A DNA stretch of 64,000 bases from an uncultured Gemmatimonadaceae bacterium (GTDB taxonomy: Bacteria; Gemmatimonadota; Gemmatimonadetes; Gemmatimonadales; Gemmatimonadaceae): NCBI GenBank assembly GCA_963781585.1, contig CAWAGQ010000010.1:160001-224000 (forward strand), given 5' to 3'. The first letter of the stretch is position 1; each line of letters begins with the position of its first letter. Below the pieces are notes generated by a model. That model was not told the DNA's origin and made no database searches. It saw only the letters and a list, made by a program, of their open reading frames with translations. Below are positions 5,064 to 28,002 of the stretch, in pieces. Position numbers and translations under genes: made by a program.

Positions 5064-5070
5064 GGGTCCA

Positions 5071-5102: not shown

Positions 5103-5335
5103 GGCCCGGGAGGTAACGGTGGGGTGGGAGGCCACGGGAGATCAGGAGGTCGGAGGTGAGGAGGCGGCGGCGGAAGTCAGAAAGCGGAGGCCGGCAGCCA
5201 GCCCACAACCCGCGCGCACGCCCTGTCCCCGCCCGCTGGCCGACACGCGAAGGGGGACCTACGTTCACAAGGCTGTGACGCCGGCGTCAGCGCCCGCGGT
5301 CGGCCTGCGACGGTGGGTGCTTCTCCCCGTGGCGA

Positions 5336-7426: not shown

Positions 7427-7540
7427 CGGCGCGGTCGATGGTCCACTGCGTCGCCTGCCACGATGGTGATATTCGTTGACGCCGGTCGCGGAGCCCGGCG
7501 AGCCTGACATGATCCTTCGACTGCCACTCCTCCCTGCGCA

Positions 7541-8446: not shown

Positions 8447-8733
8447 GCGGGGATGCTCACGCCGTGCCTCAGCCGTCGTCCACTCCTGGCGAGGCAGACG
8501 AACCGAAGCTGGCGGCATGCCGAGCACGTCGCGTGGAGTTCAAGCGGCTCGGCGAGTGGGCGGCGTTCCTGTCGCTCATGCTGGAGCCGAGGCGCAGCGG
8601 GAACGCGCGGCGCCTGCCGCGGCCCCTGGCGGATCGAGGTAATGGAGCAGCTTTTCCTGTTCGGTCCGAGGGCACGCGACATCCTCGCATCCCCGTGCGC
8701 ACAGGTTACTATCAGGAACCCCCCACGAAGTCC

Positions 8734-9174
8734 ATGGCATCATCCTGGAATGCATCACCCACAGCGAAGGCCAAGAACGCCGTACAGCGAGCGGTGACGT
8801 CCTTGTTGGACGAACTCGCTCCGGAGCGGGTGCTGAAGCGCGTCGAGCAGATTCCGGGCCCCATCGAGCAGCACCGCACGCCGACCGGCTGCGTGCTCCA
8901 GGCCGAGAACGCCGCGGTCAGTGTGAGCTGGTTCGCCGAGGCCGGGAATGACGCTGCCTTTGGTGAGCTTCAGGTCATCGTCTGGCGCGGCACCGTGACG
9001 CGGCGAGGTGCGCCACGCGCCGGAAGGGCCGCCACGACCGTGGCGGAGTTCGTCTTGCGCCCGGTCGAGCCGCCGGCGGATCCATGCATGTGGGAAGCGG
9101 CCGACGGGACGCGATACGATACGGCGGCGCTCGCGGCACGGTGCCTGGCACTTCTGGCCGAGCAGCTCTCCTGA
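8734..9174 (+). CDS. Hypothetical protein
   Basis: ATG at 8734 (MASSWNASP), 146 aa with protein-like composition; start uncertain. Confidence 0.6.
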   Translation: MASSWNASPTAKAKNAVQRAVTSLLDELAPERVLKRVEQIPGPIEQHRTPTGCVLQAENAAVSVSWFAEAGNDAAFGELQVIVWRGTVTRRGAPRAGRAATTVAEFVLRPVEPPADPCMWEAADGTRYDTAALAARCLALLAEQLS

Positions 9175-9273
9175 GCGCTGACCGTCACCATGAGGCGCAG
9201 GTGCTGGACAGGGGAGCGGCCGGGTCTATTGCGGTTTCGCGAGAGTGAATAGGTTTCGGCGCGAGAGGCCCCT

Positions 9274-10987
<1,714 letters not shown>

Positions 10988-10991
<4 letters not shown>

Positions 10992-11437
10992 GCTACCTCC
11001 ACCAGTTCACCGATGCGTTGCTGGCCGTCGGACGGTTCCGTCGCCACTTCGCGATCCGACGTTGCAATATACTGCTCGAACTTCGCGCGCTCGATATACC
11101 AAACGCCTTCGTGCTTCTGCGCGCCGATCGAATCGGGCTTGTGTTTGCAGAGCCACCGCAACGTGCTCACGGGCATGCCACAAATCGCGTGCACATCCGC
11201 GATCGTCAGGTGAAGCCGGGTATCCCTGGCAGTGTTGATGGCTTCCGTGAGTTCACGAACACAATTGGCAAGTGTCATGACGGCGTCCGAGCCGGGCGAT
11301 CGTCGGCGAAGCACGACAAGTTCCGCGTCCCACTGGCGGAGTAGCGATATGGCAGGGCCCGCGACGATGAGGGTTGGCGCGCCAAGCCCCACGAACTCAC
11401 GAGTCGTCTCATTGGTGCCACGCGCAGTATCGACCAT
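10988..11437 (-). CDS. Excisionase-like HTH protein
   Basis: LTIADVHAICGMPVSTLRWLC...AQKHEGVWYI winged HTH pattern; coupled to the integrase start. Confidence 0.6.
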
Positions 11438-11604: not shown

Positions 11605-11997
11605 ATGGCCACTTCAGTGCTACCCCAATCAGCTATCGCAAAGGGCGACGAGATATCTCCGGCGGTTAGCGTGAGCGGTGGAACGCTCGCGCGACAGGCG
11701 ACTCGGCGCAGTTGTACCAAGCTGATCCGATTCACAGCAGAGGAACTCAACGTGGTCATGGCGCGAGCGGCGGCCACTGGACGCCCAGCTGCGTGCTTCA
11801 TCCGTGAGAGTGCGATGGGTCAGAAGCCGAAGGCCAGGATCGGCACGCTCGGCGACGCAGTGGTTCATCAACTGGGACGGGTTGCCATGCGCTTGGAGGA
11901 ACTCTCTGTCGCTGCCAAAACCGCCGGGCTCACGAACGCAGCGGAGTTTGACGCAGTCGTTCGCGATTTGCTCGACACCATCCGAAGCATCGACTGA
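11605..11997 (+). CDS. mobC: MobC/NikA-like ribbon-helix-helix relaxosome accessory protein
   Basis: IRFTAEE...V.ARAAATG.P.A.FIRE.A.G and HQLGRV motifs; precedes a relaxase; real start may be GTG at 11671. Confidence 0.75.
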   Translation: MATSVLPQSAIAKGDEISPAVSVSGGTLARQATRRSCTKLIRFTAEELNVVMARAAATGRPAACFIRESAMGQKPKARIGTLGDAVVHQLGRVAMRLEELSVAAKTAGLTNAAEFDAVVRDLLDTIRSID

Positions 11998-12023: not shown

Positions 12024-12255
12024 ATGATCGCCGTTTCGAGCAAGAGCCGTAGCTTCGAGTCCCTCGGCAAGTATCTCGTCAATGCGAAAGATGGCGACGA
12101 GCAGGATCGCGTCGCGTGGAGCGCCTCTCGCAACCTGCCGACGGACGATCCGGAACTCGCGGCCAGGATCATGCGGGCAACAGCGGCGCAGAACGTTCGA
12201 GTCGACCAACCCGTCTATCACCTCACAATCAGCTTCGATCCCGGCGACCCTGTCG
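12024..12255 (+). pseudogene. Truncated MOBP/VirD2-type relaxase (N-terminal ~77 aa only)
   Basis: Motif I (SFESLGKYL) and motif II (PVYHLTISFDPGD) present; no HxH motif III; sequence then becomes the antisense of the helicase stub. Confidence 0.8.
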
Positions 12256-12256
12256 G

Positions 12257-12952
12257 GTCGCACACGATCAGGTCCCAACGGCAGTCGGGAACCGCGAGCT
12301 TGACCTGCACATCTTCGTCACGGGACAGCTTGTCGAGACGTGCGATCACGAGGTTGTTTTCGAGGAACCAGTTTCCCGTCCGCGCGGCTTCCAGCTTGTC
12401 GTTCGTCAGAATCTCAAACGGGAGGTGGAAGCGGCGGAATAGCTCGTCCTGCCACTGCTCCGCGAGACTACCTGGACAGACGATGAGACAGCGTTGCAAA
12501 TCACCACGCGCGAGGAGTTCCTTGATGAACAGGCCCGCCATGATCGTCTTGCCGGCACCGGGATCGTCGGCGAGAAGGAATCGGAGCGGCTGGCGCGGCA
12601 ACATTGCTTCGTATACCGCTGTGATCTGGTGGGGAAGCGGGTCAACGAGTGAGGTATGGACGGCGAGTACCGGGTCGAACAGGTGCGCCAGCCGAATTCG
12701 GTGGGCCTCAGACACGAGCCGAAAGAGCTCGCCGTCGCCGTCAAAGCTCCACGCGCGTCCCTGCTCGACTACTTCGAGCCGTGGCTCGTCGTGCCGATAC
12801 AGAAGCTGATTCGCTACGCGACCGGCCGGGTCCTTGTACGTGAGTTCGAGCGCCTCGGATCCGAACCACTGGACGTTCACGACCGTGACGATGCAGTCCG
12901 GGAGGACGCCGCGGACGGAGGCGCTTGGCTGCAGGTCCTGAAGCTTGCTCAT
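12257..12952 (-). pseudogene. Truncated SNF2-family helicase/ATPase (N-terminal ~232 aa)
   Basis: PLPHQ, LLADDPGAGKT (Walker A), QWQDEL; breaks at WDLIVCD just before the E of DEAH; ATG overlaps the peptidase stop. Confidence 0.85.
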
Positions 12953-14022
12953 CGGCGAGCGTCGCGAGCCGCGACCATCGTGATGAAAGCGTAGACGTAC
13001 GGGCCGCGCCGTGCCGCGTGGACACGGATTGGGAGCGCCGGCAGCGCGCCCGTCGACGAGTCTTCCCACCAACTTTGATCTTCCTGAGCGGTGAGGTCGG
13101 TTTCCGTCGCCGACTCGAACGCCTTGTAGAGAACAGAACGCTGCGGCACGCGCATGTTCGGCCTGATCGCGAATCCGGCGTCGTCGGCGAACTCGTTTGG
13201 CACCACCTTCACCGCGCGGAGCTTCGCCGTCGGTCCGGGGGCGAAGGCGAAGCTCTGCTGCCCCGAACGGCGGAAACGATCTTCGGCCCTCTTGAAGGCC
13301 ATCTCTGCTTCAACGAGCAACATCGGCCGATCCTGCAAGTGCAGGCACGCCATCCCTGACGCGAAGATGCTCGGCGTGGGATCGATCGTTGCCCGCGCGG
13401 CCTCAAGAGCGCGAAAGGTCACGCCATGCTCACCGATGGCTGCATCCAGCATGGGCCGGAACAAGGGCTCGTAGAAAGCTAGATGTCCGGCGACGTGATC
13501 GACTACGGTCTCGATCGGATCCTTCTTCACTTCCGTGAAGGTGGGAGTCCGTCGGAATCCTGTGAATGCGAGCTGAGCGGGATGGAGCACGAGATGTGTG
13601 ATCTCGTGCCACGCCGTGAAGTAAGCCCGTGCGGCGCGGGTTCCCCGAGCGTCCACAATCGCGAGATAGCGGGGCCGGTGGAGGTCTTCGGTCTCTCGTT
13701 CGAGCGTTATGCCTTCCGTCGTGTCCTTCACGAATTCCTGTTCCAGCTGCCGACTGAGGGCCGAATGGAATTCAGCGAACTTCGACGCGATAGTCCTCAC
13801 ATCCTCGTCAGATCGGATGTAATCGACTCGCACCCGGTACTTGTGGGAGAGTACGCCGAGGAGCGCACCGAGTGACTCGACCGGTATTGGCGCGTTCTCG
13901 ACGATGCTCCGGACCTGGTCCAACGCGAAGCGTCGGATGGCGGCGAGGCAATCGCCGCGCGTGCTTAACCCGAGCTCTTTGGCTAGAGTCACAACGCGTG
14001 GGTGGCGTGCGATCGGGGGCAT
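12949..14022 (-). CDS. ImmA/IrrE-family zinc metallopeptidase (CapP-like)
   Basis: RAYFTAWHEITH and downstream PIETVVD motif; follows an XRE gene; start may be 14022, 14073 or 14091. Confidence 0.82.
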   Translation of the reverse strand: MPPIARHPRVVTLAKELGLSTRGDCLAAIRRFALDQVRSIVENAPIPVESLGALLGVLSHKYRVRVDYIRSDEDVRTIASKFAEFHSALSRQLEQEFVKDTTEGITLERETEDLHRPRYLAIVDARGTRAARAYFTAWHEITHLVLHPAQLAFTGFRRTPTFTEVKKDPIETVVDHVAGHLAFYEPLFRPMLDAAIGEHGVTFRALEAARATIDPTPSIFASGMACLHLQDRPMLLVEAEMAFKRAEDRFRRSGQQSFAFAPGPTAKLRAVKVVPNEFADDAGFAIRPNMRVPQRSVLYKAFESATETDLTAQEDQSWWEDSSTGALPALPIRVHAARRGPYVYAFITMVAARDARR

Positions 14023-14048
14023 CGTGCTAGCGGAAGTGGCCGCTGCCG

Positions 14049-14498
14049 CTAACGCGGCGACTGCCTGAGCCATTCGTGTAGACGCCTCCACTGCTCCTTC
14101 GAGTAGGGGCGAGCATTGTCATCACCTCCGGGCGACCCACTGCGGCGTGCGACCACCATTCCGCGTGCGCTAAGGAGCTGGCGCGCCTCCTGAAGGGACA
14201 AGTTCTCCTCTTCGGCGTACGTGGCCAACTCGGACGGAATCACTACTGGCTCTCGCTTCGGCCCGCGTGGAAGCTCTCCCTTGACGAGGTAATCCAGTGT
14301 CGTCTCTAGTGCGTCCGCCAAGCGCATAAGAGCATCGGCGCCCGGCTTTCGATGGCCGTTCTCCACCTCGCTAATGAAGGTGACGCTTATCTCTGCGTTC
14401 TTGGCCAGCTCTTGTTGCTTCAGCCCACGCTTTTCGCGGAGGTCTGCAACCCGGGCGCCGAGCGTTGCGGGAACGGAGGGTTTGCTGATGTTTGACAT
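14049..14498 (-). CDS. XRE-family HTH regulator (CapH/ImmR-like)
   Basis: LGARVADLREKRGLKQQELA...ISVTFISEVENG.RKP....L..LA.AL.TTLDYLV. Confidence 0.9.
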   Translation of the reverse strand: MSNISKPSVPATLGARVADLREKRGLKQQELAKNAEISVTFISEVENGHRKPGADALMRLADALETTLDYLVKGELPRGPKREPVVIPSELATYAEEENLSLQEARQLLSARGMVVARRSGSPGGDDNARPYSKEQWRRLHEWLRQSPR

Positions 14499-14535
14499 TT
14501 ACAGTATGCGCTAGTAGCTTACCGTATGATGTAAG
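14492..14535 (+). promoter_or_regulatory. Sigma70 promoter with operator repeats driving the Ubl-Qat operon
   Basis: TTGACA (14492-14497), 17 bp, TAGCTT (14515-14520); TTACMGTATG direct repeat at 14499 and 14519; CTTAC-N8-GTAAG dyad. Confidence 0.65.
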
Positions 14536-14630
14536 TCACCGAAGGCGATCGTATCAAAGATGCACGAAGGCCGACCGGGTGGCAAGGAACTTCAACGTGG
14601 GTTGCGCCGTTCGGCGCGGAGGATTCGAAA

Positions 14631-14942
14631 ATGGGTGAACAGGCGAGTGCAGGGGGAGCAGGGGCTGGAGTCGCGCCGCACGGCAACAGTGGCCAGGGCG
14701 ACGGTCACCGGCAGGATGTTGTCGAGATCACGATCAACAACAAGCCGTACCAGATCCATCGCGGTCGGCAGACGGTCCTCGCCATCAAGACGCTGGGCGG
14801 CGTTCCGCAAGCCGATGAACTTGCGCAGGTGGTCGAGGGAAACACGCCTCCGTTGACGCCACTCAAGGATGACGGCAGCGTGACCATCAAGGGCGGCGAG
14901 ATCTTCGTCTCCTACCCGAGGGACAGCGGGTCCTCCAACTGA
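14631..14942 (+). CDS. Ubiquitin-like (multiubiquitin-domain/beta-grasp) protein, BubA/BilA-like
   Basis: VEITINNKPY.I..G..TV..IK.LGGV.....L....L..DD.V.IKGGE.FVS pattern; tail RDSGSSN; Gly-rich N-terminus. Confidence 0.8.
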   Translation: MGEQASAGGAGAGVAPHGNSGQGDGHRQDVVEITINNKPYQIHRGRQTVLAIKTLGGVPQADELAQVVEGNTPPLTPLKDDGSVTIKGGEIFVSYPRDSGSSN

Positions 14943-14944
14943 CG

Positions 14945-15283
14945 ATGTCGTTTCCAGGCGAACAGGTGGCGGAGCTGAGCGCGCTATACCCCGGACTCCA
15001 GCAGGCGACGGAGGCCGGGGTGCTCTACTTCTTGATCCCCAGCCTCGCGCTCCCGGCCGGATGTTCCGCGGCAAGCGTGGACGCGCTCCTATGTCCGACT
15101 CAAAGGGAAGGGTACGAATCCCGGCTGTTTCTCTCGAAACAGATTACCTGTGCGGCCACTCGGAATTGGAACGCATCGAACATTCGCGTTCTGGAGCGTA
15201 ACTGGTTCGCGGTATCGTGGAAGACGCGTTCGGGGTTGCGACTCGCGCAGATGGTAAGCGCGCACATCGAGGCGTTTCGCTGA
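14945..15283 (+). CDS. Prokaryotic E2-like protein (BubB-like)
   Basis: EAGVLYFLIP.L.LP.GC....DALLCP...GY.SRLF....NWN...LERNWFAVSW; lies between the Ubl and JAB-E1 genes. Confidence 0.72.
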   Translation: MSFPGEQVAELSALYPGLQQATEAGVLYFLIPSLALPAGCSAASVDALLCPTQREGYESRLFLSKQITCAATRNWNASNIRVLERNWFAVSWKTRSGLRLAQMVSAHIEAFR

Positions 15284-16689
15284 TGACGATGAGACGAGGT
15301 AGAATAGCGAGGCACGTCGCGCGCGACGCGCACACATACAGCGAGCCCCCCGTCGGCGCCGCGATTCTGCGGATCCCGAACACGATCGCCGACCGAGTTC
15401 GGGACGACCTGCGGCGGCCCCATCGATTCGCGGCGGAGCGCATCGGATTTCTGAGCGCGGCGGTCGGGCCCACTGAGGCCGGCCTCGTGATAGTCGCGGC
15501 GGAGTATTACACCGTCGCCGACGAGCACTACGTTCCCGGGCGTGGAGCCGGTGGTCGCATTGGTGTCCAGGCGATCCGAGAGGCAATGACGCGCGCGATC
15601 GCGTCTGGCCTCGGCATCTTCCATGTGCATCTCCATGAGCACAGCGGGGTCCCGTCGTTCAGCCCCACCGACCGCGCCGAGCAGACGCGCCTCGTGCAGA
15701 GCCTGAACGCTGCCTCTCCAAACCGGCCGCACGGCATGATCGTGCTTAGCGCCGACGGTGCGAATGCTTGGATATGGATGCCTGGCGAGACGGTACCGTC
15801 CGTTCCTGCGCGCCTGGCGTTGGTCGGCTACCCGATGCACTTGGTTGGCGGCGCCACTCGGCGTCGGAACCGCCGAGCGGGCGATCGGTACTCTCGACAG
15901 TCGTTCCTCGGGCCCGAGAGTGAAGAGCAGCTTGGTACCGTTCGGATCGGATTGCTGGGATTCGGCGGCGGCGGGTCACACGTGGGTCAGCAGCTTGCTC
16001 ACCTCGGCGCGGAGAGCGTACGCGTTGCAGATGGTGACCGAATCGACGATTCGAACCTGAATCGGCTCGTCGGTGCGACCGCGGGCGACGTCCGCGCCAA
16101 GCGCCTCAAAGTCGATATCGCAAGGCGCATCGTCTCTGCGGTGAACCAGCAAGCGGACGTCATTACACATGACGGGCCCTGGCAGGAGCGTGCCGACCTG
16201 TTCCGCTCCTGTGACATCCTCGTTGGGTGTGTCGACTCGTTCAAGCAGCGGCAAGAAGCCGAGGTGCTCGCTCGGCGCTTCGCGATTCCATACATCGACA
16301 TTGGCATGGACGTTCATCAGGTCGACGACGATCCGCCGCGCATCGGCGGTCAGCTAATACTGTCGATGCCGGGCGGCCCCTGCATGACCTGTTTCGGATT
16401 CCTCACGCCAGAAAAACTCGCGAGCGAGGCGGCGCGGTACGGCGATGCGGGCGGTCGGCCGCAGGTCGTCTGGCCGAACGGAGTCCTCGCGTCCTCAGCC
16501 GTCGGCGTTATCGTTGATCTCGTGACGGGCTGGACGCGGATGCGAGATCGGATCGTGTACCTCTCGTACGACGGGAATCTTGGGACGCTCACGGATCACG
16601 TTCGCCTGCGCCACCTTCGATGGAGTTCGTGCCCGCACTTTCCGGAGGGCGCGGTCGGGATGCCGCGATTCACGCCAGCGCGAGCGTAG
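15283..16689 (+). CDS. JAB/MPN-like domain fused to ThiF/E1 adenylation enzyme (BubC-D-like)
   Basis: N-half ERIGF...HVHLHEH...FSPTD; C-half RYSRQ, GFGGGGS, SNLNRL, GCVDS, IDIG, CMTC, CPH; TGATG coupling to E2. Confidence 0.85.
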   Translation: MTMRRGRIARHVARDAHTYSEPPVGAAILRIPNTIADRVRDDLRRPHRFAAERIGFLSAAVGPTEAGLVIVAAEYYTVADEHYVPGRGAGGRIGVQAIREAMTRAIASGLGIFHVHLHEHSGVPSFSPTDRAEQTRLVQSLNAASPNRPHGMIVLSADGANAWIWMPGETVPSVPARLALVGYPMHLVGGATRRRNRRAGDRYSRQSFLGPESEEQLGTVRIGLLGFGGGGSHVGQQLAHLGAESVRVADGDRIDDSNLNRLVGATAGDVRAKRLKVDIARRIVSAVNQQADVITHDGPWQERADLFRSCDILVGCVDSFKQRQEAEVLARRFAIPYIDIGMDVHQVDDDPPRIGGQLILSMPGGPCMTCFGFLTPEKLASEAARYGDAGGRPQVVWPNGVLASSAVGVIVDLVTGWTRMRDRIVYLSYDGNLGTLTDHVRLRHLRWSSCPHFPEGAVGMPRFTPARA

Positions 16690-16776
16690 CGTAGCGCATT
16701 GGTCCGACGAATCCACTCGCGCTCGACGTACTGACACGCATTTCGTAGCCAACCAGTTTCGAGAGGACAGGCCTGG

Positions 16777-18780
16777 ATGTGGTCCGATAACGAAGCCGAA
16801 ATCGACCTCCTCAATGTTGAACACCTTGTTGGTGCGGTTCTCCGCGTCGTCAGGGATGATCGCCTCGACCCAGTCACGGTCGGTGTATACGGCGACTGGG
16901 GAAGCGGGAAGTCCAGCGTTATCCAGCTACTTCGTCAGCGCATCGCGACGGAGCCGGATCTACTCGCCGTGTACTTCAATGGATGGCGTTTCGAGGGCTA
17001 CGAGGACGCTAAGGCGGCGTTGGCCTCGACCATACTGGAGCAGATCCAAGAGGAAGCGGCGAAGCCGAACGGCGGGAAGTTTGCTCGGGCGAAAGACGCA
17101 GTCGTTGCTGCAGTGAGCGGCCTCTGGGATCGCGTGGACAAATTGCGGTTGAGCAAGCAGGCGCTGACAGTCGGTGCAAACGCCGGGCTCGCCGCTGGAG
17201 CGCTGGCAATCGGCGCTACGGCAGCTGTGCCAGTTACTGCGGCCGCGATCTTCGGCGTCGTGGTCAAGTCATTGCTCCACTCCGGTAAGGAGATCGACGG
17301 CGAGAAGCTCGCCGAACTGATCAAGGAGCGTGAAAAGGCCGAATCGAAGGACCAGCGCGACATGCACGTCTCGGTGCGGGACTTCCACAAGGAGTTCGCC
17401 AAGCTCGTTGCGCAGCTCGGCGTCAAGCGGCTTGTCGTGATAGTTGACGATCTCGACCGGTGCCTTCCGCACAACGTTATCGAGACTCTCGAGGCGATCC
17501 GGCTCTTTCTGGCTGCGCCGAAGACTGCCTTCGTCATCGCGGCCGACGAAGCGCTGATTCGGGAGGCCGTCGGGTATCGGTTTGCTGAACCGACGCCGGT
17601 GCTTGGAGCCGAGGGACGCCCGCGAGCGTCGATCGGAGCGCGTTATCTGGAGAAATTGATCCAGGTGCCAATCCGGGTTCCTCCCTTGTCACGGAGCGAC
17701 CTACACGGGTACCTGAACCTCCTCTTCGCGGAGGAACGGTCCGCGAATGCGGCCAGCTTCGCGCAGCTCGCCGGGCGCGTGCGCAGCGCGTCATCCTACG
17801 ACGTCATCTCGTTCCATCCGGGCAACGCTGAGAATCTCTTGGGAGGGCCGATCAGCGATGACCTCAAGGCGGATTTCGTCTTGGCCGAACAGATAGCTCC
17901 GGTGCTGGCACTCACGGCGGAAGGAAACCCGCGCCAGACGAAGCGGTTTCTCAATGCACTCGTCTTACGGTTGGAGATGGCCCATGCTCGCGGCATGACG
18001 CTTGATCGCCAGGTAGCAGCGAAACTTCTACTTCTCGAATACTTCTTGCCCGAGCTGTTTCGCTCGCTCGCCCTTGAGGTTGCGGCCAACGAGGGGCAGT
18101 CCCCATCACTGGCAGCTCTTGAGGCAGACGCGCGAACGATTGGTACGACTGCGGGCGGCGGTGTGCGAGACGGCGTCGGGACCGGAAGCACCTTCGCGAC
18201 GCAGGCGGCGGCAATGCGGGCAAGCGACCGGTTCCTCACTTGGGTGCGTACGGACCCTGAACTCGGAAATCTGGATTTGCGGCCGTACGTGTATTTCGCA
18301 AGCGAGCGCTACGCGCTGCCCGTCGGTGTGGCGCAGCGATTGAGCCCATCCGGAGCCCGGGCGCTTCAGGACCTGCGCTCAGATAGCGAGGCGCTGCACC
18401 AGAAGGCTGCCGAGGCCGCAACAGGTCTCCCGCTTCCTGAGCTAACCGCAATCATCGGCGAGTTGACTGCCTACGCTCGAACGGGTCGAGTTAACCTCGA
18501 TGAGCGTACGTCACCACTCTCGGCGATGGTCGAAGTCGCCAAGCGCCGCCCTGACGTCGCTCCTGACGTTCTTGCGTCGATTCTCGGCCTGCCATCCGAC
18601 ATGGTGCCGGTTGCGGCTCCGGTGCTCGTAAATGCTCTCGGCAGCGTCGCTGGTATGCGGGACGCCGCGACGAGCGCTCTTGAGACGCTTGCTTCCTCAC
18701 CGAACAAGGCGGTCAAGGCTGCGGCCGAGGGTCGCCTTCGGGCCGTGCGTGACGGGTCAGCCGCGAATCGGGGGCGGTAG
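16777..18780 (+). CDS. qatA: Qat system KAP-family P-loop NTPase QatA
   Basis: MWSDNE..DLLN start, GVYGDWGSGKSS, LVVIVDDLDRC, YLEKLIQVP, NPRQ.KRFLN; gene order A-B-C-D. Confidence 0.92.
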   Translation: MWSDNEAEIDLLNVEHLVGAVLRVVRDDRLDPVTVGVYGDWGSGKSSVIQLLRQRIATEPDLLAVYFNGWRFEGYEDAKAALASTILEQIQEEAAKPNGGKFARAKDAVVAAVSGLWDRVDKLRLSKQALTVGANAGLAAGALAIGATAAVPVTAAAIFGVVVKSLLHSGKEIDGEKLAELIKEREKAESKDQRDMHVSVRDFHKEFAKLVAQLGVKRLVVIVDDLDRCLPHNVIETLEAIRLFLAAPKTAFVIAADEALIREAVGYRFAEPTPVLGAEGRPRASIGARYLEKLIQVPIRVPPLSRSDLHGYLNLLFAEERSANAASFAQLAGRVRSASSYDVISFHPGNAENLLGGPISDDLKADFVLAEQIAPVLALTAEGNPRQTKRFLNALVLRLEMAHARGMTLDRQVAAKLLLLEYFLPELFRSLALEVAANEGQSPSLAALEADARTIGTTAGGGVRDGVGTGSTFATQAAAMRASDRFLTWVRTDPELGNLDLRPYVYFASERYALPVGVAQRLSPSGARALQDLRSDSEALHQKAAEAATGLPLPELTAIIGELTAYARTGRVNLDERTSPLSAMVEVAKRRPDVAPDVLASILGLPSDMVPVAAPVLVNALGSVAGMRDAATSALETLASSPNKAVKAAAEGRLRAVRDGSAANRGR

Positions 18781-18782
18781 CT

Positions 18783-19736
18783 GTGGGCACCTCGACATCC
18801 AATCCAGGACCAATGGGACGCCCGTCGCTGCTACCGCCTTGGGCACCAGCCGCCGACGTCGGGGATGCTGGCGAAGGCGACCACGATCAAGGCGGCCAGC
18901 CGGACGATGGCAGCGCGAACGACGATGGACAGGGTGGAGCCAGTTCCGGTGATGTCGGCGCCGATTCGACCGGCACGGGGAGTGAGGCGGCTGGGCCTCC
19001 GTCGTGGATGTCGGTTCGTCGGCTCGTCGGAGCTGCGGGCTCAGGTCGCGCAGGGGGTCACCGAGGACGCGACAACCTGCATCGGGCGGTGCGGCGCTCA
19101 GTCGGTGCCATGGGCGGGCGCCGCGCAGCGGCGCACAGTGCGGTGGCTGGCCGCCAGACGGCCGGCCGGTTCGCGAGCTTTCTCGCTGGCGTCGCGGCCG
19201 GCGGCGTCGAGGCGGCGGCGGGGGCGCTGGGGATCGCCGAGCACCTCGGCGGAAGCGCGGATGTGTTCCTTCTTCACCTCGCCGACGCGCTTGCGCCGGC
19301 CGGCGCGCTGACGGAGGAAGCGATTGCACGAGACGCAATGGACGCCACGCTGATGGATCTGTATCAGCAGCTCAACATCGATGCCGACGGCGTCGTCGCC
19401 CTCGAGCGATTGTCCGCCGCGATGATGGCAGGGGCACTCGTCCAGTACGTGATCAATTACATCCATGCACGCGTGATCAATGCGCTTGCGGCGCACCTCC
19501 ATGCTTCTTCTTCAACGGTTAGCCGAATCGGAGACGCCGAGCGAACGGCCCGACGGTATATCGAGAGTGTGGTGCGGCAAGACATTGACACAAGCGCCTT
19601 CTTCGGCTCGAACGGTCAGTTACTCGCAGACCGATGGGACGCGGCTGCAGGCCAACGGATCATAAACCGCCTCTTTGAGGAAGCCTATCGAGTGGTTGAA
19701 GCTGGTCTGGCTCAATCACCGAGGGGGAGCGCGTGA
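18783..19736 (+). CDS. qatB: Qat system protein QatB
   Basis: MGTS N-terminus (GTG start), LLPPWA, acidic linker, helical C-domain; between qatA and qatC. Confidence 0.88.
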   Translation: MGTSTSNPGPMGRPSLLPPWAPAADVGDAGEGDHDQGGQPDDGSANDDGQGGASSGDVGADSTGTGSEAAGPPSWMSVRRLVGAAGSGRAGGHRGRDNLHRAVRRSVGAMGGRRAAAHSAVAGRQTAGRFASFLAGVAAGGVEAAAGALGIAEHLGGSADVFLLHLADALAPAGALTEEAIARDAMDATLMDLYQQLNIDADGVVALERLSAAMMAGALVQYVINYIHARVINALAAHLHASSSTVSRIGDAERTARRYIESVVRQDIDTSAFFGSNGQLLADRWDAAAGQRIINRLFEEAYRVVEAGLAQSPRGSA

Positions 19737-21139
19737 CGGCGCGTACGGCGTCTGCCATCCCGACCTATCGCGTGCTCCTCCGCGCCGGCGCCTCCGACGC
19801 AGCCAGCGTCGTCCCGAAGACGGGCGATATTCTGGTGGGACTCCGCATGGATGGTGCTCCCGGTGACGATGCCTCGCGGGTCGACGAATCGGTTTGGGAT
19901 ACCCTCTGGGCATTTGGATTGCGTCCGTCACAGCACGCCACCGACTTCTTCCGCGTGGCGACAGCGGCCTACTGCGCCGACCTTCTGATCCCGCACGAGA
20001 CCGCATTCGATCGCTGGTCGCGCGCGATCAGCCTGCACGTACCTGTCAGCGATCCGGCGCGTTGGCGCTCGGTCGAGGCGCCGCTTCGCGAAATGCTGGG
20101 CTTCCTCACCGGAGACCATTGGACGTTTGACTTCCGCGCGGTAGCTGTAGCACCACCTACGGGTCATGCGCACTTGCGGGGCCGATATGGCCCCGTCCGC
20201 GCAAGTCGGGTGAGCCTGCTGTCTGGCGGCCTCGATTCCGCCATTGGGGCCGCCGACCTGATCGACGCCGGAGAACAGGTGGCATTCGTTAGCCACAACG
20301 CCAAGAGTGGGGGCGCGGTCTTTTCGAGCCCCTCGCAGCGCGCTGTGCTCGACGTGCTTCGGCCGAGCGGGGTCGTGGGCCAAGTACATCACTTGCGTTT
20401 TCGGGTCAACCCGCCTGCCCCCATCCAAGGGATCACCGCTGCCGTCACGACGACCCGCAGTCGGTCGATCATGTTCTTCGCACTCGGTTTACTCGTGGCA
20501 AGCGCGTTGGACGCTGTTCAGCGCGACGGCCCGATCCCGCTCGTGATCCCGGAGAACGGATTGATTTCACTCAACGTGCCGCTCACGAAGGCACGGCTGG
20601 GAAGCTGGAGCACTCGTACGACTCACCCTCACACACTAGCGACGCTTCGGCTCGTGCTGGCTGGTCTCGGCCTCACGACGCCGCTCGTAACGCCGTATGC
20701 TACTGCGACGAAAGGCGAGGTCCTGGCATCGCTCGTCGCGCGAGGCCGCGAACGGGCAGAATTGCTAACCGCGGTGACTGTCTCGTGTGCCCACCCAAAC
20801 CAGAGCAGATTCTTGGAGCCTGGACGCCGCCAACCCCACTGTGGAACCTGCGTTCCGTGCATCATTCGACGTTCCGCCACGCAGCACGCGGGAATCGATG
20901 ACGCCAGATACAGCTTCAACCTGCCATCTGAGCTCACTGTCCTGCGGCGTGGTCGCGCCGAAGACCCGTCTGCATTCGCATATGCGCTGGCGACTCGTCG
21001 TCGACCGGCCCGGCCGCTCGACATCAACCTGGCCGGCCCTCTGCACGTCGATACTGATAATGACTTGCGCGCCCTTCTGCGGGTATTCGACGCCGGCATG
21101 GATGAGGTTGCGCGGTTTCTGGGCGTCGAAATCCGCTAG
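19733..21139 (+). CDS. qatC: Qat system QueC-like protein QatC
   Basis: SLLSGGLDS PP-loop, RSRS..F, PENG.ISLNVPL...STRTTHP, SCAH...HCGTCVPCIIRR. Confidence 0.93.
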   Translation: MTARTASAIPTYRVLLRAGASDAASVVPKTGDILVGLRMDGAPGDDASRVDESVWDTLWAFGLRPSQHATDFFRVATAAYCADLLIPHETAFDRWSRAISLHVPVSDPARWRSVEAPLREMLGFLTGDHWTFDFRAVAVAPPTGHAHLRGRYGPVRASRVSLLSGGLDSAIGAADLIDAGEQVAFVSHNAKSGGAVFSSPSQRAVLDVLRPSGVVGQVHHLRFRVNPPAPIQGITAAVTTTRSRSIMFFALGLLVASALDAVQRDGPIPLVIPENGLISLNVPLTKARLGSWSTRTTHPHTLATLRLVLAGLGLTTPLVTPYATATKGEVLASLVARGRERAELLTAVTVSCAHPNQSRFLEPGRRQPHCGTCVPCIIRRSATQHAGIDDARYSFNLPSELTVLRRGRAEDPSAFAYALATRRRPARPLDINLAGPLHVDTDNDLRALLRVFDAGMDEVARFLGVEIR

Positions 21140-21145
21140 CTGCCG

Positions 21146-21946
21146 ATGCCCCCCGCGCCAACCCGGTCGGCCCGCCTCGTCGACACGCATTGCCATGTCG
21201 ACCTCTTCTCCGATCCGGCCGGTGTGGTGCGTGAGACTGAAAAGCACCAGGTCTACACCATCGCGGTAACCAACACACCGTCGGTATTCTCACATCTGTG
21301 CGGAATCATCGGGAACTCCCGATTTGTGCGACCAGCCTTGGGGCTGCACCCGGAGCTCGCACCGCAGCGCCATCGTGAACTGTCGCTCTTCACCGAGTTA
21401 CTTCCACAGACCCGCTACATCGGCGAGGTCGGGCTCGATTATCAGACCACCGCCGAATCCGAGCGTGTCGTGCAGCGACGGGTCCTAACCACCATCGTCG
21501 AGCAGTGCGACGCAGTCGGCGGAAAGATCGTTACGGCGCACAGTCGGCGCGCAGCCGAGGACGTAGTGTCTGCGTTCGGTGAAGGGTTCCGAGGCGCGTA
21601 CATCTTGCACTGGTATTCGGGAGCAGTGCGAACTCTCAAGCGCGCGGTTGCCAACGGCGCGTACTTCTCGGTCAACCCTGCAATGATGCGCTCCGATCGC
21701 GGACGAACGTTGGTGTCTCAGGTGCCGCGAGAGCGCGTACTCACCGAGACGGACGGGCCATTCGTATCCGTCGACGATGCACCAGCGTTGCCATATCAAG
21801 TCCACCTTGTGGTAGACGAGTTGGCGCGACTCTGGGGTGTTTCGCCCGATGAGGCGCGCAGTACCGTGCGCCAGAATCTGTCAGCCGTGCTGCGCGGTCG
21901 CGACGGCCGTTCCGACGGAGGTATCAATGAGCGGGGCGAGCTGTGA
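21146..21946 (+). CDS. qatD: Qat system TatD-family nuclease QatD
   Basis: DTHCH, GLHP, IGEVGLD, HSRRA, LHWYSG, TETDGP motifs. Confidence 0.93.
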   Translation: MPPAPTRSARLVDTHCHVDLFSDPAGVVRETEKHQVYTIAVTNTPSVFSHLCGIIGNSRFVRPALGLHPELAPQRHRELSLFTELLPQTRYIGEVGLDYQTTAESERVVQRRVLTTIVEQCDAVGGKIVTAHSRRAAEDVVSAFGEGFRGAYILHWYSGAVRTLKRAVANGAYFSVNPAMMRSDRGRTLVSQVPRERVLTETDGPFVSVDDAPALPYQVHLVVDELARLWGVSPDEARSTVRQNLSAVLRGRDGRSDGGINERGEL

Positions 21947-22145
21947 ATCGGTCTAACCCACGGCAGCAGCCGACGGTTCGCGCTCGGTGCCGCGGCGCGT
22001 TCGCTCTTGTCTAGCACCCGGGACCCGTTCCGGGACCCGTTCGAGGCCGAACTCGGCGCGATAGGCTCAGCGCCCAGAGCACCGCACGTGACGTCTTCAG
22101 AGGGAAGTTGGCGTATACTGCACTCAGCCCTTGTGTTTCGTCCTC

Positions 22146-22250
22146 CTTCCCAAGCTGGACGTCGCCGGTTCGAGTCCGGTCGCCCGCTCTCCCCAAGTGC
22201 TCGATCTCGACCCACCGCCGATCGCCGGAATCCCAACGGATCCCGGCGAT
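22146..22250 (+). repeat. attR direct repeat (displaced 3' half of tRNA-Gly plus terminator hairpin)
   Basis: Matches 9304-9408; includes the ATCGCCGG...CCGGCGAT hairpin. Confidence 0.95.
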
Positions 22251-22264
22251 CTCTGCGTGAGGGC

Positions 22265-23002
22265 TCATCGGCCGCGAATGAGGAACAGCAACCCCGCCAC
22301 GATCATCGTCGCTTCGATCAGCACCACGAACACCCGCTCGGAGAGTCGATCGACAATGCGCTTGCCCGTCCAGGAGCCCAGCACCATGACGGGACCCATC
22401 GCGAGGCCTACGAGAACCGAACTGCCGGAAAGCACCGCCGCATTCCGATACGCGACGAGCTTCGTCAGATGCATCACGACCGTCGACAGCGCCTCAGTGC
22501 CGATGTAGGCGCCCCGCACGAGTCCGAACGCGAGAAAAAACGGCGCCATCAGTGGCCCAACGCTCCCAAGAAGCGCCGAGACGAAACTGGCCGCGGCCCC
22601 GATGAGGGCGAAGCCGCGGAGCGGCGGACGCGGGAAGCCGCGTGGGCGCAGATGACGCCAGGCCACCACGAACAGCAGGAAAGCGCCGAGTAGCCGGGTC
22701 AGGGCGGCCAGCGGCGCGCGGGCGAAGAGCAATCCCCCGAGAAAGCCGAGCGGCACAGATCCGACTGCGAACCATCCCACCACCCGGTAGTTCAACTCAC
22801 GGCGGTTGAACCACACCCGGCTGCCGTTGCCGATGAGCTGTGCCACGGTGAGGATCGGCACCGCATCGCGTACCCCGACGGCGACCACCAAAACAGGCAG
22901 GAGCACCGCCGCTCCGCCAAATCCGGTGATGGCCGCGAGTGTGGACGCCACAAGGGCAGCGGCGCCGACAAGGAGCGAAGATCCGGCGGAGAGGTGTGGC
23001 AT
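22265..23002 (-). CDS. Sulfite exporter TauE/SafE family membrane protein
   Basis: TGFGGA..LLP, SALLGSVGP; hydrophobic 245 aa. Confidence 0.88.
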   Translation of the reverse strand: MPHLSAGSSLLVGAAALVASTLAAITGFGGAAVLLPVLVVAVGVRDAVPILTVAQLIGNGSRVWFNRRELNYRVVGWFAVGSVPLGFLGGLLFARAPLAALTRLLGAFLLFVVAWRHLRPRGFPRPPLRGFALIGAAASFVSALLGSVGPLMAPFFLAFGLVRGAYIGTEALSTVVMHLTKLVAYRNAAVLSGSSVLVGLAMGPVMVLGSWTGKRIVDRLSERVFVVLIEATMIVAGLLFLIRGR

Positions 23003-23122
23003 GTGGATGCGTGCAAGGTATCGAACCGGTCTCGGGGTTGGTGAGCACGCGGTCGCGCCTTATCGAAATCCGCCTCGTCACGGGCATCACTCCACACCCA
23101 GGCCCGCGACAGAACGACGCTG

Positions 23123-23173
23123 TTGACGATCGGAGCGGAGACGCGTAGGTTCCACTAACCTGGTTAGTGGAAC
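23123..23173 (+). promoter_or_regulatory. Promoter and perfect palindromic operator upstream of padR
   Basis: TTGACG, 17 bp, TAGGTT, overlapped by GTTCCACTAACC-T-GGTTAGTGGAAC (23149-23173). Confidence 0.75.
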
Positions 23174-23179
23174 GACCAC

Positions 23180-23509
23180 ATGCCCGACGCCAACGACCTC
23201 CTCCACGGCACGCTCGACGTCCTCGTCCTCAAGACCCTCACCTGGGGACCGATGCACGGCTACGCCATCTCGCAATCGATCGGCGCGCGCACGCGGGGCG
23301 AGCTCGAGATTGTCGATGCTGCACTCTACAAGTCGCTGCATCGGCTCGAGGCCGGCGGGGCGGTGACGGCGGAGTGGGGCGTCTCCGACAACAATCGGCG
23401 CGCCAGGTACTACTCGCTCACGGCAAAGGGGAGGCAGCAGCTGAGAGCCGCCGCCACCACCTGGCACCGGTACGCAGCCGCGGTGGTGCGGGTACTCGGT
23501 TCCGCCTGA
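23180..23509 (+). CDS. PadR family regulator (acidobacterial type)
   Basis: LLHGTLDVLVLK.L...PMHGYAI...LY..LHRLE...EWG.SDNNRRARYY.LT..G. Confidence 0.93.
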   Translation: MPDANDLLHGTLDVLVLKTLTWGPMHGYAISQSIGARTRGELEIVDAALYKSLHRLEAGGAVTAEWGVSDNNRRARYYSLTAKGRQQLRAAATTWHRYAAAVVRVLGSA

Positions 23510-23517
23510 GCCGCGCC

Positions 23518-26286
23518 ATGTCGCTTCACGACCATCCGAACATTCCCACCGGGGTGCGGCGCCTTCCCGCGCTCCCGGCCAGCCGATCGCGCCGCGAGCG
23601 CGAGCTGGACGACGAGGTCCGTTTTCATCTCGAGATGTGCATTGCCGATCTCGTCGCCCGCGGCATGAGCGAGGAGGACGCTCGGGCCGAAGCACAGCGG
23701 CGCTTCGGCGATACCGAGGAGCTCAGAGCCTACTGCCAGGGCGTCGAGGTGCCACACCTGCGTCGCATGACATTGCGCGAATGGTTCAGCGATGGGTCCC
23801 TCGCCCCCGCTCGAATGCGCCAGGCGGTTCGTCGCCTGATGCGCGCCCCGGTGTTCACCACCTCCGCGGTGCTCACACTCATGCTCGGTATCGGCGCGAC
23901 CTCGGCGGTGCTCGCGGTCGTCGATCGCGTCCTGCTCCGTCCGCTGCCGTATCCGCGTGCCGGGCAACTCGTCGATCTGTCGCACACGCTCACGATTTCC
24001 GGTCTGGCGTACGTCGATCAGTCGGATGCGACGTACCTGCTGTACCGGCGCGACAATCACGTGTTCAGCGACGTCGGCGCGTATCGGTCGCTCGCGGTGA
24101 ATCTGGCTTCGAACGCCGCTGCCGGATCGGGGGATGGCGCCTCGACGGAGCGACTGCCGGCGGCGCTGGCGACGGCCAGTGTCTTCCGCGTGCTGGGCGC
24201 CGCCGCGCAGCTCGGGCGTGGCCTTCGTGAGGACGACGGCGGTCCCGGCGCGCCCCCGGTGGTGGTGCTGAGTCACGGGCTCTGGCAGCGCGCGTTCGGG
24301 GGCAGTGCGTCGGTGATCGGGACGCGCGTATCCGTCGATGGCGTGCAACGCGACGTGGTGGGGGTGATGCCGGCCGGGTTCGAATTTCCGGAGTCGGGGA
24401 CGTCGCTGTGGATTCCGCTCCCCCTCGATCCGGCACGCACCCGGTCGGCGGCATTCGACTATCGCGGCATCGCGCGCCTGAAACCCGGTGTCACGCTGGA
24501 AGCGGCCCGCGCCGATCTGCAGCGACTGCTCCCGCGCGTGCCCGAAGTGTTTCCGGGTCGGCTCACCGCCGGGGCGATCACGTTGACGCGGATGCAGACG
24601 GTGGTGCGTCCGCTTCGCGATCTTCTGGTCGGCGACGTGCGACGCACGCTCTGGATCGTGCTGGGCGCGGTGGGGACGCTGCTGCTGCTCGCCTGCGCCA
24701 ACGTCGCCAACCTCTTTCTCGCACGGGCCGAAGGGCGCCACCGCGAACTCACGGTGCGGCGCGCCCTCGGGGCCGGCCGCGCCGCGCTCCTCACCGAGTT
24801 CCTGTCGGAATCGCTGCTCGTCTCCGCGGCCGGTGCCGCGTTAGGCATCGCGCTCGCCTCGGCCGGGGTGCGGCTGCTCCGGACCATGGAGTGGGGGGTC
24901 CGGATTCCGCGGCTGGCCGAGGTCCGGCTGGACGCCGCGTCGGTCGGGGTGACGGTGTGCCTGTCACTCCTCGCGGCGTTGGGGGTGGCGGTTGTTCCCT
25001 TTCTGCGCGTCCGCAAGACATCGCCGGCGGCGGCGCTCGTTGCCAGCGCGCCGTCCGCATCCGGTGGACGCACCCGGTCCCGTGCCCGACGGGCCCTCGT
25101 GGTCGTGCAGGTTGCGCTGGCCCTGGTGCTGCTCACCGCGGCCGGCCTGTTTGCACGGAGTTTCGCCCGGCTTCGCTCGGTCGATCCCGGATTCCGCGCG
25201 GATCACGTGCTGACGTTCCGGGTGGCGCTGCCCGAGGCGCTCTATCCGGACGCGGGCGATGCCGCGGCGCTCATCCTTGGCGCGCTGGACAGTATCGGTG
25301 CGCTCCCCGGTGTGGAGGCGGCCGGTGTCATCACGACGCTTCCGCTCGATCAGGAGACCCGACAGGACAGCGCGGTGTGGGTGGAGGATCATCCCGATCC
25401 AACGAGCCGCACCCTGCGCATTCATCAGATGCTGTTCGTGACCTCCGGGTATTTCCACGCGATGCGGATTCCCCTGGTGGCGGGTCGACTGTTCGCACGG
25501 CCGGAGCCGGCACTCGATGTCGGTCAGATCCCCCGCGAAGTCATCGTGAGCAAGGCATTCGCCGAGCGGTACTGGCCCGGGGGAAGCGCCATCGGAAAGC
25601 GGGTTCGCATGAATCCGGTCGATCCGTGGTCCACGATCGTCGGCGTGGTCGGTAACGTGCGCGACGATGGCCTGGACCGCCCGCCCACGGAATCGGTCTA
25701 CAATCCGCTGGTGGTGGCGAGTGTGACGGGCGCGGCGTGGTCCCCGCGGAACGTCGCGTTCGCGGCGCGGGCGCGCGGTGAGGAATCGTCGATTGCGGCG
25801 CCGATCGAGCGGGTGGTGCAGCGCCTGGCCCCGTCGCTGCCGGTGTACCGGATGATGCTGGCTGGCGCGCTGGTGTCGCGTGCGGTGTCGCGCACCACGT
25901 TCACGCTCCTGCTCCTCGGCCTGGCGGCGGTGATGGCGGTGACGATCGGAGCGGTCGGGATCTACGGCGTGATTGCCTATCTGGTGAGCTTGCGCGCGCG
26001 CGAGATGGGCGTGCGACTCGCGCTCGGGGCGCGCCCGCTGGACGTCCGCCGGCTGGTGACGCGTCAGGCGCTGGGCGACGCCGCGCTCGGCATCGGCGCC
26101 GGACTGGTCGCGGCGGCGGCGACCACGCGCGTGCTGGTCACCCTGCTGTTCGGAGTGCGTCCCCTGGATCCGATCGCGTTAGGCAGCGCGGCGGCGTTGC
26201 TGCTGATCGCCGCGCTGGCGGCGAGCTGGCTGCCCGCCCGCCGGGCGGCGCGGCTGGATCCCGCGAGCGTGCTGCGCCTGGAATAG
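23518..26286 (+). CDS. ADOP-type duplicated MacB/FtsX ABC permease
   Basis: ELDDEVRFHLE prefix, [37 protein letters not shown]; follows PadR. Confidence 0.92.
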   Translation: MSLHDHPNIPTGVRRLPALPASRSRRERELDDEVRFHLEMCIADLVARGMSEEDARAEAQRRFGDTEELRAYCQGVEVPHLRRMTLREWFSDGSLAPARMRQAVRRLMRAPVFTTSAVLTLMLGIGATSAVLAVVDRVLLRPLPYPRAGQLVDLSHTLTISGLAYVDQSDATYLLYRRDNHVFSDVGAYRSLAVNLASNAAAGSGDGASTERLPAALATASVFRVLGAAAQLGRGLREDDGGPGAPPVVVLSHGLWQRAFGGSASVIGTRVSVDGVQRDVVGVMPAGFEFPESGTSLWIPLPLDPARTRSAAFDYRGIARLKPGVTLEAARADLQRLLPRVPEVFPGRLTAGAITLTRMQTVVRPLRDLLVGDVRRTLWIVLGAVGTLLLLACANVANLFLARAEGRHRELTVRRALGAGRAALLTEFLSESLLVSAAGAALGIALASAGVRLLRTMEWGVRIPRLAEVRLDAASVGVTVCLSLLAALGVAVVPFLRVRKTSPAAALVASAPSASGGRTRSRARRALVVVQVALALVLLTAAGLFARSFARLRSVDPGFRADHVLTFRVALPEALYPDAGDAAALILGALDSIGALPGVEAAGVITTLPLDQETRQDSAVWVEDHPDPTSRTLRIHQMLFVTSGYFHAMRIPLVAGRLFARPEPALDVGQIPREVIVSKAFAERYWPGGSAIGKRVRMNPVDPWSTIVGVVGNVRDDGLDRPPTESVYNPLVVASVTGAAWSPRNVAFAARARGEESSIAAPIERVVQRLAPSLPVYRMMLAGALVSRAVSRTTFTLLLLGLAAVMAVTIGAVGIYGVIAYLVSLRAREMGVRLALGARPLDVRRLVTRQALGDAALGIGAGLVAAAATTRVLVTLLFGVRPLDPIALGSAAALLLIAALAASWLPARRAARLDPASVLRLE

Positions 26287-26332
26287 CACCTCGGCCGCGC
26301 GAGGCGGATTCCGGGAGACATCGACGCGGCCG

Positions 26333-27835: not shown

Positions 27836-28002
27836 GAGGGAGGTGGGGTGAATTGGGTCGGAGGCGCATTTTAGTTCTCAAACCTGACGGACACGACGTT
27901 GATGCGGCGTGTCAGCGCCTCGCCATGAATCGCATATCACTCCGGTTCGTTCCACTCGTTGAGGCCGAATGCGGCACGTGATGGGGGACGCCATGGTTTG
28001 AC

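Follow-up and report, generated by a model that had tools for sequence, protein, structure and literature searches.

QatABCD, a four-gene defence system, is reportedly the system of Gao et al. 2020. The QatB MGTS terminus, the QatC SGGxDS motif and a paired Thr motif are defined in PMC13279940, and defence requires both the glycine motif of QatB and the active site of QatC (PMC13279940, PMC13639016). Type I Bub (formerly 6E.1/DUF6527; BubAB, BubCD and BubE of Citrobacter sp. RHBSTW-00271; structures 9ea4, 9ea8 and 9eae) conjugates a ubiquitin-like protein (Ubl), has a BubAB fusion that is cleaved by BubCD, and was shown to work by cysteine-free oxyester chemistry (10.1101/2024.11.21.623953; Ye, Gong, Chambers, Corbett). 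CapH and CapP are an XRE repressor and an HExxH metallopeptidase encoded divergently around a shared promoter region, in which CapH binds a conserved DNA element beside the -35 box; Lau et al. (10.1101/2022.04.27.489752) already place the pair beside two uncharacterised ubiquitin-related operon types. Here we describe a locus in which relatives of all three stand together, in a 64,000-nt stretch (the window) of an uncultured Gemmatimonadaceae bacterium (assembly GCA_963781585.1, contig CAWAGQ010000010.1, positions 160,001 to 224,000, forward strand). Nine genes, namely capP, capH, Ubl, E2, JAB-E1, qatA, qatB, qatC and qatD, form one cluster. We consider it probable that these are independent defence modules stacked on an island at a tRNA-Gly gene, and that the adjacency of the Bub-type and Qat genes is a one-off of island assembly and not an evolved two-system machine.

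The Bub-type cassette and the QatABCD operon

The nine genes occupy the window positions that a first-pass annotation, made from the letters alone, had assigned to them, and its gene identities (CapH/CapP, Bub-like Ubl, E2 and JAB-E1, intact QatABCD) were borne out by Pfam, PADLOC and structure matches. The features of the cluster are as follows.

12949-14091, - strand: capP-like HExxH metallopeptidase (380 aa; HEITH at residue 162; PADLOC capP 3.5e-7)
14049-14498, - strand: capH-like XRE repressor (149 aa; HTH_3 1.5e-14; PADLOC capH 1e-13)
14492-14535, + strand: divergent promoter and putative CapH operator, read by eye
14631-14942, + strand: Ubl, a single beta-grasp with a disordered N-terminus (103 aa; Multi_ubiq 8.3e-5, below the Pfam cut-off)
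14945-15283, + strand: BubB-like E2 (112 aa; no sequence family; fold match)
15283-16689, + strand: JAB-E1, a JAB-ThiF fusion (468 aa; ThiF 2.2e-25)
16690-16776, + strand: inter-cassette spacer of 87 nt, with the ribosome-binding site GAGAGGA ahead of qatA
16777-18780, + strand: qatA, KAP P-loop NTPase (PADLOC 1.3e-113)
18783-19736, + strand: qatB, with GTG start, MGTS N-terminus and PPW at residue 18 (PADLOC 1.9e-30)
19733-21139, + strand: qatC, QueC family, with SGGLDS at 164 and TRTTH at 294 (PADLOC 1.3e-96)
21146-21946, + strand: qatD, TatD-like nuclease (PADLOC 6.2e-81)

No gap on the + strand exceeds 87 bp. Ubl and E2 are 2 nt apart, E2 and JAB-E1 overlap by 1 nt (the JAB-E1 open reading frame (ORF) is open from 15217, and its called ATG overlaps the E2 stop codon), and 87 nt separate JAB-E1 from qatA; the intervals among the qat genes are 2 nt (qatA/qatB), a 4-nt overlap (qatB/qatC) and 6 nt (qatC/qatD).

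The best PDB sequence match of JAB-E1 was Citrobacter BubCD (9ea4), at 1e-15 with the single sequence (phmmer) and at 1.4e-25 with a profile built from an alignment of 36 homologues, and the match covered both the JAMM motif and the E1 adenylation core. The Zn-ligand positions H116, H118 and D130 were invariant in the 36 sequences, as was Y386 (EAARYG), which follows the CxxC; this tyrosine would correspond to Citrobacter Y370, a residue before which the HMMER alignments to BubCD end. E2 matched no family in the sequence-family searches (Pfam, PADLOC), and both E2 and Ubl gave only chance-level matches to the PDB by sequence, single or profile, so fold comparison was used instead. The AlphaFold model of E2 (43-sequence alignment; predicted local distance difference test (pLDDT) 92.6) had Citrobacter BubB (9eae_C) as its top PDB match, with probability 1.00 and a template modelling (TM) score of 0.71, followed by UEV and E2 folds. 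Across 128 E2 sequences, S91, W75 and W87 were invariant, Y57 was conserved at 99% and H107 at 95%, and C50 fell below 90%; S91 was also invariant in the 43-sequence set. The histidine H107 lies 16 residues beyond S91, so there is no SxH here, whereas the Citrobacter spacing is that of S333/H335. Ser91, in place of a Cys, may be the catalytic residue of E2. The Ubl model (pLDDT 70.9), in which the N-terminal ~28 residues are disordered, was closest to bacterial multi-ubiquitin proteins and BubA(155-229). Its C-terminus reads DSGSSN, and the family consensus end is G-[GSA]-S-S, a short Ser tail that the JAB domain probably trims, by analogy with BubCD.

The cassette thus resembles Type I Bub in its JAB-E1 sequence, in the BubB and BubA folds of its E2 and Ubl, in an invariant E2 serine with no conserved cysteine, in an invariant E1 tyrosine after the CxxC, and in its association with CapH and CapP. 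The residue pattern fits the cysteine-free oxyester chemistry of Bub, with the equivalences between individual residues putative. It differs from Type I Bub, with its BubAB fusion, in that Ubl and E2 are separate genes, divided by a stop codon and a frame change, a split found in every listed relative (>100). It differs further in the Ser-Ser(-Asn) that follows the Gly at the Ubl end, in the E2 without SxH, and in BubE, the DUF6527 serine protease: PF20137 had 0 matches in the 5.7-Mb genome (93.5% complete), and BubE was not among the conserved neighbour families of the 160 relatives' loci described below, where CapH/CapP was the only conserved one. These results indicate that this is a Bub-type ubiquitin-like conjugation cassette without BubE and with Ubl and E2 split, a form that is undescribed, whereas QatABCD and CapH/CapP are known. 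The published Bub operon sets were gathered through DUF6527 (10.1101/2024.11.21.623966), so a form without BubE would be outside them. The JAB-E1 family comprises 2743 proteins at E<=1e-10 among 8000 candidates scored, and the present cassette adds a member, with counts, to a large BubE-less Bub-type family marked by split Ubl and E2 and a Ser-Ser Ubl end.

The four qat genes stand in the order KAP NTPase, QatB, QueC-like QatC and TatD-like QatD, each with a PADLOC match near full length, and QatC matched the QatC of the PDB at 3.3e-59. Both qatB and qatC start with GTG, and the QatB terminus, (GTG)M-G-T-S, is intact, as had been noted. QatABCD here is complete and canonical. Its gene order, motifs and PADLOC lengths are like those of described QatABCD (structures 9vlk and 9zee; PMC13279940, PMC13639016, PMC13376578), from which it differs in substance only by its position 87 nt behind the last gene of another system. 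The first-pass annotation had also credited the literature with a report that QatC modifies the QatB N-terminal Gly. This wording was too strong: in PMC13279940 and PMC13639016, modification of the QatB N-terminus by QatC is proposed, and the reaction is stated as unresolved.

Conservation of the cassette and of its neighbours

The search for JAB-E1 relatives recovered 303 stretches from species genomes and 577 from metagenomes, and the 80 best matches on each side made up the set of 160 loci. Ubl and E2 lay immediately upstream of JAB-E1 in most of the 160 loci, and the exceptions were usually cut contigs. Among the 104 loci with 2.5 kb or more of upstream sequence, 73 had a CapP-like gene on the opposite strand, 66 a CapH-like gene, 57 both and 22 neither. 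A CapP- or CapH-like gene was accordingly found upstream in 82/104 loci (~79%), compared with 31% reported for Bub operons; association with CapH/CapP is thus much more frequent in the BubE-less family than in the published Bub operons. These counts were obtained with purpose-built iterated hidden Markov models (HMMs), with 14 examples checked against PADLOC (capP down to 1e-60). They replaced a tblastn search with the window's CapP and CapH, which found few loci and under-counted; a first CapP iteration, which started from just the window's protein, had stalled at 4 loci. The tie between CapH/CapP and the ubiquitin-like cassette, as first proposed, is therefore that of a conserved unit.

Downstream of JAB-E1, single-linkage clustering of neighbours revealed no conserved family among the 160 loci; this clustering merged some CapH and CapP ORFs and was used only for downstream non-conservation. 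Of the 127 loci with at least 1 kb of downstream sequence, 61 had a convergent first neighbour, 41 a co-directional one no more than 300 bp away, 21 a co-directional one at a greater distance and 4 none. Pfam was run on 36 of the 41 near, co-directional genes, with 5 near-duplicates left out: 11 had matches, in ten families (AbiEi_2, Mrr_cat, DisA-type cyclase, DUF2188 (twice), DUF1508, DUF2924, FAA hydrolase, M16 peptidase, HARE-HTH and zinc ribbon), 25 had none, and no Qat family was present among the 36. Because the upstream genes recur and none downstream is conserved, the unit is capP-capH / Ubl-E2-JAB-E1, and it usually closes its own transcription unit.

The pairing with QatABCD was not conserved. 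Qat genes followed JAB-E1 in 0/135 loci with at least 700 bp downstream (105 of these with at least 2.5 kb), from the 160 fetched. Of 401 genomes taken as a sample of the window's phylum, 8 had QatA, as did 10 of 401 from another phylum, and Bub or CapH/CapP genes lay upstream of qatA in 0/16 Qat loci, of which four had ~9 kb flanks and the rest 1.5 kb, with three cut by contig ends. The closest QatABCD, from a genome of the same family (G037; 69/60/65/68% identity for QatA/B/C/D), stands alone; the DNA upstream of its qatA is unrelated to that of the window, and the alignment shows no convincing conservation before the start codon. Searching another 300 genomes of the order for JAB-E1 gave nine distant matches, one of them in the unpublished genome G077; the best was 37% identical and partial. 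A viral-contig scan with the alignment of QatC returned 45 pattern matches without a single relative among them. On the Bub side, the only Qat-like signals were a weak KAP-like match on the opposite strand at one locus (L171) and a QatC-family gene at another (L004), considered below. A published neighbourhood table for the QatC cluster lists KAP_NTPase and TatD, and ThiF and Multi_ubiq are absent from the supplement text searched (PMC13329287). A literature search for the combination, including Bub and Qat terms within the CapP preprint, found no paper describing the pairing in the library covered. The Ubl-E2-JAB/E1-qatABCD synteny, which the first-pass annotation had proposed to look for in other genomes, is thus unique to this genome among the loci surveyed, an outcome that the annotation itself had listed as counting against its proposal, and on present evidence the Bub-Qat juxtaposition appears to be a single occurrence. 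That annotation was, on the same evidence, right about the parts and wrong about the whole.

Two further patterns were seen among the downstream neighbours. Four related loci from Melainabacteria/Cyanobacteria (L025, L027, L030 and L032) carry, ~118 nt past the E1 stop codon and co-directional with it, a conserved 483-aa protein with a DACND + DACNH sensor and a DisA-type diadenylate cyclase. A DUF2188 protein is the first gene past the E1 stop at two unrelated loci (L073 and L077); DUF2188 is named as part of another CapH/CapP-associated putative system in 10.1101/2022.04.27.489752.

The island at tRNA-Gly

The cluster lies between two copies of a direct repeat, together with mobility genes and a fragment of a further defence gene.

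9274-9347, + strand: tRNA-Gly(CCC), with the attL region to 9412
9304-9412, + strand: attL, left copy of the 109-nt direct repeat, from a repeat search
9285-10991, - strand: putative integrase, a 568-aa ORF of uncertain true extent (PHROG phrog_1 1.1e-6; no Pfam, NCBIfam or PADLOC match)
10988-11437, - strand: HTH_17 protein, weakly excisionase-like (PF12728 1.6e-4, below the Pfam cut-off)
11605-11997, + strand: NikA-like mobilisation protein (PF21983 4e-9)
12024-12809, + strand: relaxase remnant, MobA/VirD2/TraI-like in its first ~80 residues (Pfam Relaxase residues 20-77; NCBIfam TraI_MobP_relax residues 6-81, a 502-position model)
12218-12952, - strand: truncated hmaA, SNF2 helicase of the Hma system (PADLOC HmaA 1.8e-108, profile positions 1-230 of 1176)
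22146-22254, + strand: attR, right copy of the 109-nt repeat (97% identical to 9304-9412)

The repeat begins in the tRNA-Gly(CCC) anticodon loop and takes in the 3' portion of the tRNA. An empty site was found in a same-genus genome (G871, 64% complete), in which 8008-9409 is joined directly to 22265-23061 with one tRNA-Gly. The G+C content in 2-kb windows was 0.62-0.66 across 10-22 kb, compared with 0.66-0.71 in the flanks within 30 kb. Given the flanking repeats, the mobility genes and the empty site in the sister genome, we conclude that the cluster is carried as cargo by an integrative island of 12.8 kb, once mobilisable and now decayed. It is in islands of this kind that one would expect to find unrelated defence systems as neighbours. 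A 21-nt motif, GGACCCGTTCC(C/G)GGACCCGTT, was also noticed inside each island end, at 9418-9438 (6 nt past attL) and at 22021-22041 (~105 nt before attR); it forms a hairpin after qatD, and its role may be that of a terminator or of an arm site for a recombinase.

Hma stands for 'helicase, methylase, ATPase'. The island shares with the Hma system the N-terminal 233 residues of HmaA, and differs from it in that only about one fifth of the length (~233 of ~1176 residues) is left and no further Hma genes were identified in the island, where the three neighbouring ORFs scanned had no PADLOC match. The fragment's ATG overlaps the capP stop codon (ATGA), an arrangement that couples hmaA translationally to capP; as it stands, the fragment is non-functional. 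Beyond its first ~80 residues, the relaxase remnant runs antisense to the hmaA fragment; the remainder of hmaA and of the relaxase gene, plus any further Hma genes, was apparently lost in one deletion. The stacking that we favour would then consist of the CapH/CapP-controlled cassette as a first module, a self-sufficient canonical QatABCD operon as a second, and, as a third, the inactive remains of an Hma system joined to the end of capP. The claim of a new two-chemistry immune machine fails against the comparative evidence, and the locus looks like ordinary defence-island stacking instead. It is a clean example with defined borders: a small island integrated at a tRNA gene, vacant in a sister genome at the same site, with defence cassettes on both arms of the CapH/CapP promoter, and so a natural test case of whether the regulators of one system capture its neighbours through read-through.

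Possible shared control, read-through and cooperation

The XRE-type HTH gene adjoins the HExxH peptidase gene and both diverge from the + strand genes, a layout that recurs in relatives and is that of known CapH/CapP pairs. Unlike those, the 380-aa CapP matches only the core of the PADLOC capP model (residues 92-267, 3.5e-7) and has a foreign hmaA coupled to its end. A consensus promoter had been proposed ahead of Ubl. A sigma-70-like promoter scan of 12500-22500 gave 0 sites, with a tool that does not cover the promoter consensus of this phylum; by eye, a perfect -35 box, TTGACA (14492-14497), overlaps the capH start codon and is followed, after a 17-nt spacer, by a weak -10, TAGCTT (14515-14520, 3/6). 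This layout recurs in relatives, and the proposal of a consensus promoter was borne out in part. Two copies of TAC(A/C)GTATG accompany these boxes, TACAGTATG at 14500 and TACCGTATG at 14520, the second inside a palindrome with CTTAC/GTAAG arms spanning 14518-14535. A TTGAC box followed by a TACAGTA-type element was also present in three relatives with regulator proteins 45-75% identical (4 aligned loci). Within the 64-kb window the exact 9-mer occurred only at 14500 and 14520, and none stood ahead of qatA. By analogy with the conserved promoter element bound by CapH (10.1101/2022.04.27.489752), the element at 14492-14535 would be the CapH operator.

On the combined models of CapH/CapP and Type I Bub biochemistry, a likely mechanism for this module would run as follows. 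CapH would repress the shared promoter through the TAC(A/C)GTATG / CTTAC..GTAAG operator, and CapP, stimulated by single-stranded DNA or DNA damage, would cleave CapH. The JAB domain would trim the Ser-rich tail of Ubl and the E1 domain would adenylate it, after which Ubl would move through oxyesters on the E1 tyrosine and E2 Ser91 to its targets.

Several observations weigh against independent stacking as the whole account. The spacer at 16690-16776 contains no recognisable promoter, terminator or CapH operator, and the tight packing of the genes is typical of an operon. Foreign defence genes sit on both CapH/CapP-linked transcription units, hmaA through capP on one arm and qatABCD on the other, and the coupling of hmaA together with the position of qatABCD therefore speaks for regulatory capture of the qat genes. 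Of the cassette's relatives, the two nearest are unreadable past E1, since L003 (77%) ends in the gene and P0002 (83%) is on a 4055-bp contig, and for this reason the Bub-Qat pairing may yet exist in the nearest lineage. At least 880 JAB-E1 relatives were detected, of which the survey took in the 160 best, together with only 16 Qat loci. Finally, a QatC-family gene (PADLOC QatC 6.3e-42) lies on the opposite strand 4 kb downstream of the Bub-like cassette in L004 (Binataceae).

The strongest alternative concerns regulation only and is compatible with independent stacking, which it refines: the seven + strand genes would form one CapH/CapP-controlled transcript, making QatABCD inducible by damage or phage, with the two biochemistries independent. 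The 87-nt same-strand gap, free of terminator- or promoter-like sites and folding no better than shuffles (z = 0.91), favours such a transcript, as does the qatA upstream DNA unrelated to that of G037, since an ancestral Qat promoter, if located there, may not have come along; the ATGA overlap of hmaA with capP shows comparable wiring on the opposite arm. Against this, the absence of an obvious terminator, which the first-pass annotation had noted, holds for the spacer but is weak evidence in this genome, because the + strand scan found none after qatD either; the best spacer hairpin (-12.3 kcal/mol) is near the median of 152 relatives (-13.5), an uninformative comparison; the promoter consensus of this phylum lies outside the coverage of the tool; and no second CapH operator is found near qatA. 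Control of qatABCD by CapH could come only through read-through across the spacer, which is possible. That transcripts from the CapH-controlled promoter run on into qatABCD we regard as a serious possibility a little short of even, and we hold the capture of QatABCD by this switch, as a whole, in the same tentative esteem.

Far less probable is the composite 'double-conjugation' module of the first-pass annotation, in which Ubl conjugation and QatC-dependent N-terminal modification would have evolved to cooperate or share targets under one switch. The local arrangement, with both systems using ATP-dependent protein modification, is the only positive evidence for it, apart from L004, where a QatC-family gene and a second XRE/CapP-like pair lie within 6 kb of a Bub-like cassette. 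Against it stand the pairing's absence from all 135 informative loci and all 16 Qat loci, the isolation of the closest QatABCD, the lack of an operator repeat ahead of qatA, the completeness of both modules, each of which occurs alone in relatives, and the clustering of defence genes in islands anyway. We judge such a module very improbable, and equally so any biochemical cooperation of the two chemistries, of whose dependence on each other there is no sign. A further reading makes the bidirectional CapH/CapP promoter a hub, once serving an Hma arm and now a seven-gene transcript, with QatABCD made only on damage or infection; in its boldest form, Ubl would also be attached to a Qat component or to a shared phage target, and the chemistries would act in series. 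This too we think highly unlikely. The L004 cluster (13528-17249, - strand) comprises the QatC-family gene, a 192-aa unknown protein, an XRE gene and a CapP-like peptidase gene, 4-6 kb from the cassette. As a second Bub-Qat instance it was rejected: the gene is on the opposite strand, has SNGLDS and not SGGxDS, lacks an MGTS-starting partner and lies outside any QatABCD operon, with no qatA or qatD. The L004 cluster could be a QueC-family defence module in its own right, equipped with a CapH/CapP-like pair.

A chimeric join at the Bub-Qat junction, as could arise in a metagenome-assembled genome of 17 contigs with 93.5% completeness and 7.19% estimated contamination, is the least credible explanation, since the island that contains the junction is bordered by matching 109-nt repeats, has a length equal to the repeat spacing (12,842 nt) and has flanks that are contiguous in the sister genome, and the G+C content is even across the junction.

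Beside the island, two neighbouring regions were noted. The interval 794-9174, between a five-tRNA cluster (110-789) and tRNA-Gly, holds five long ORFs (574, 324, 702, 182 and 258 aa) that had no Pfam or PADLOC match; NCBIfam, run for the 574-, 324- and 702-aa ORFs, gave none for these either. On the other side, the sister-genome stretch (G871, L201) aligns to 22265-23061 and then to 28001-29404, without 23062-28000, a second strain-specific indel beside the island; absent from it are a MacB/FtsX-type permease (23167-26286) and an RCC1-repeat protein (26333-27835).

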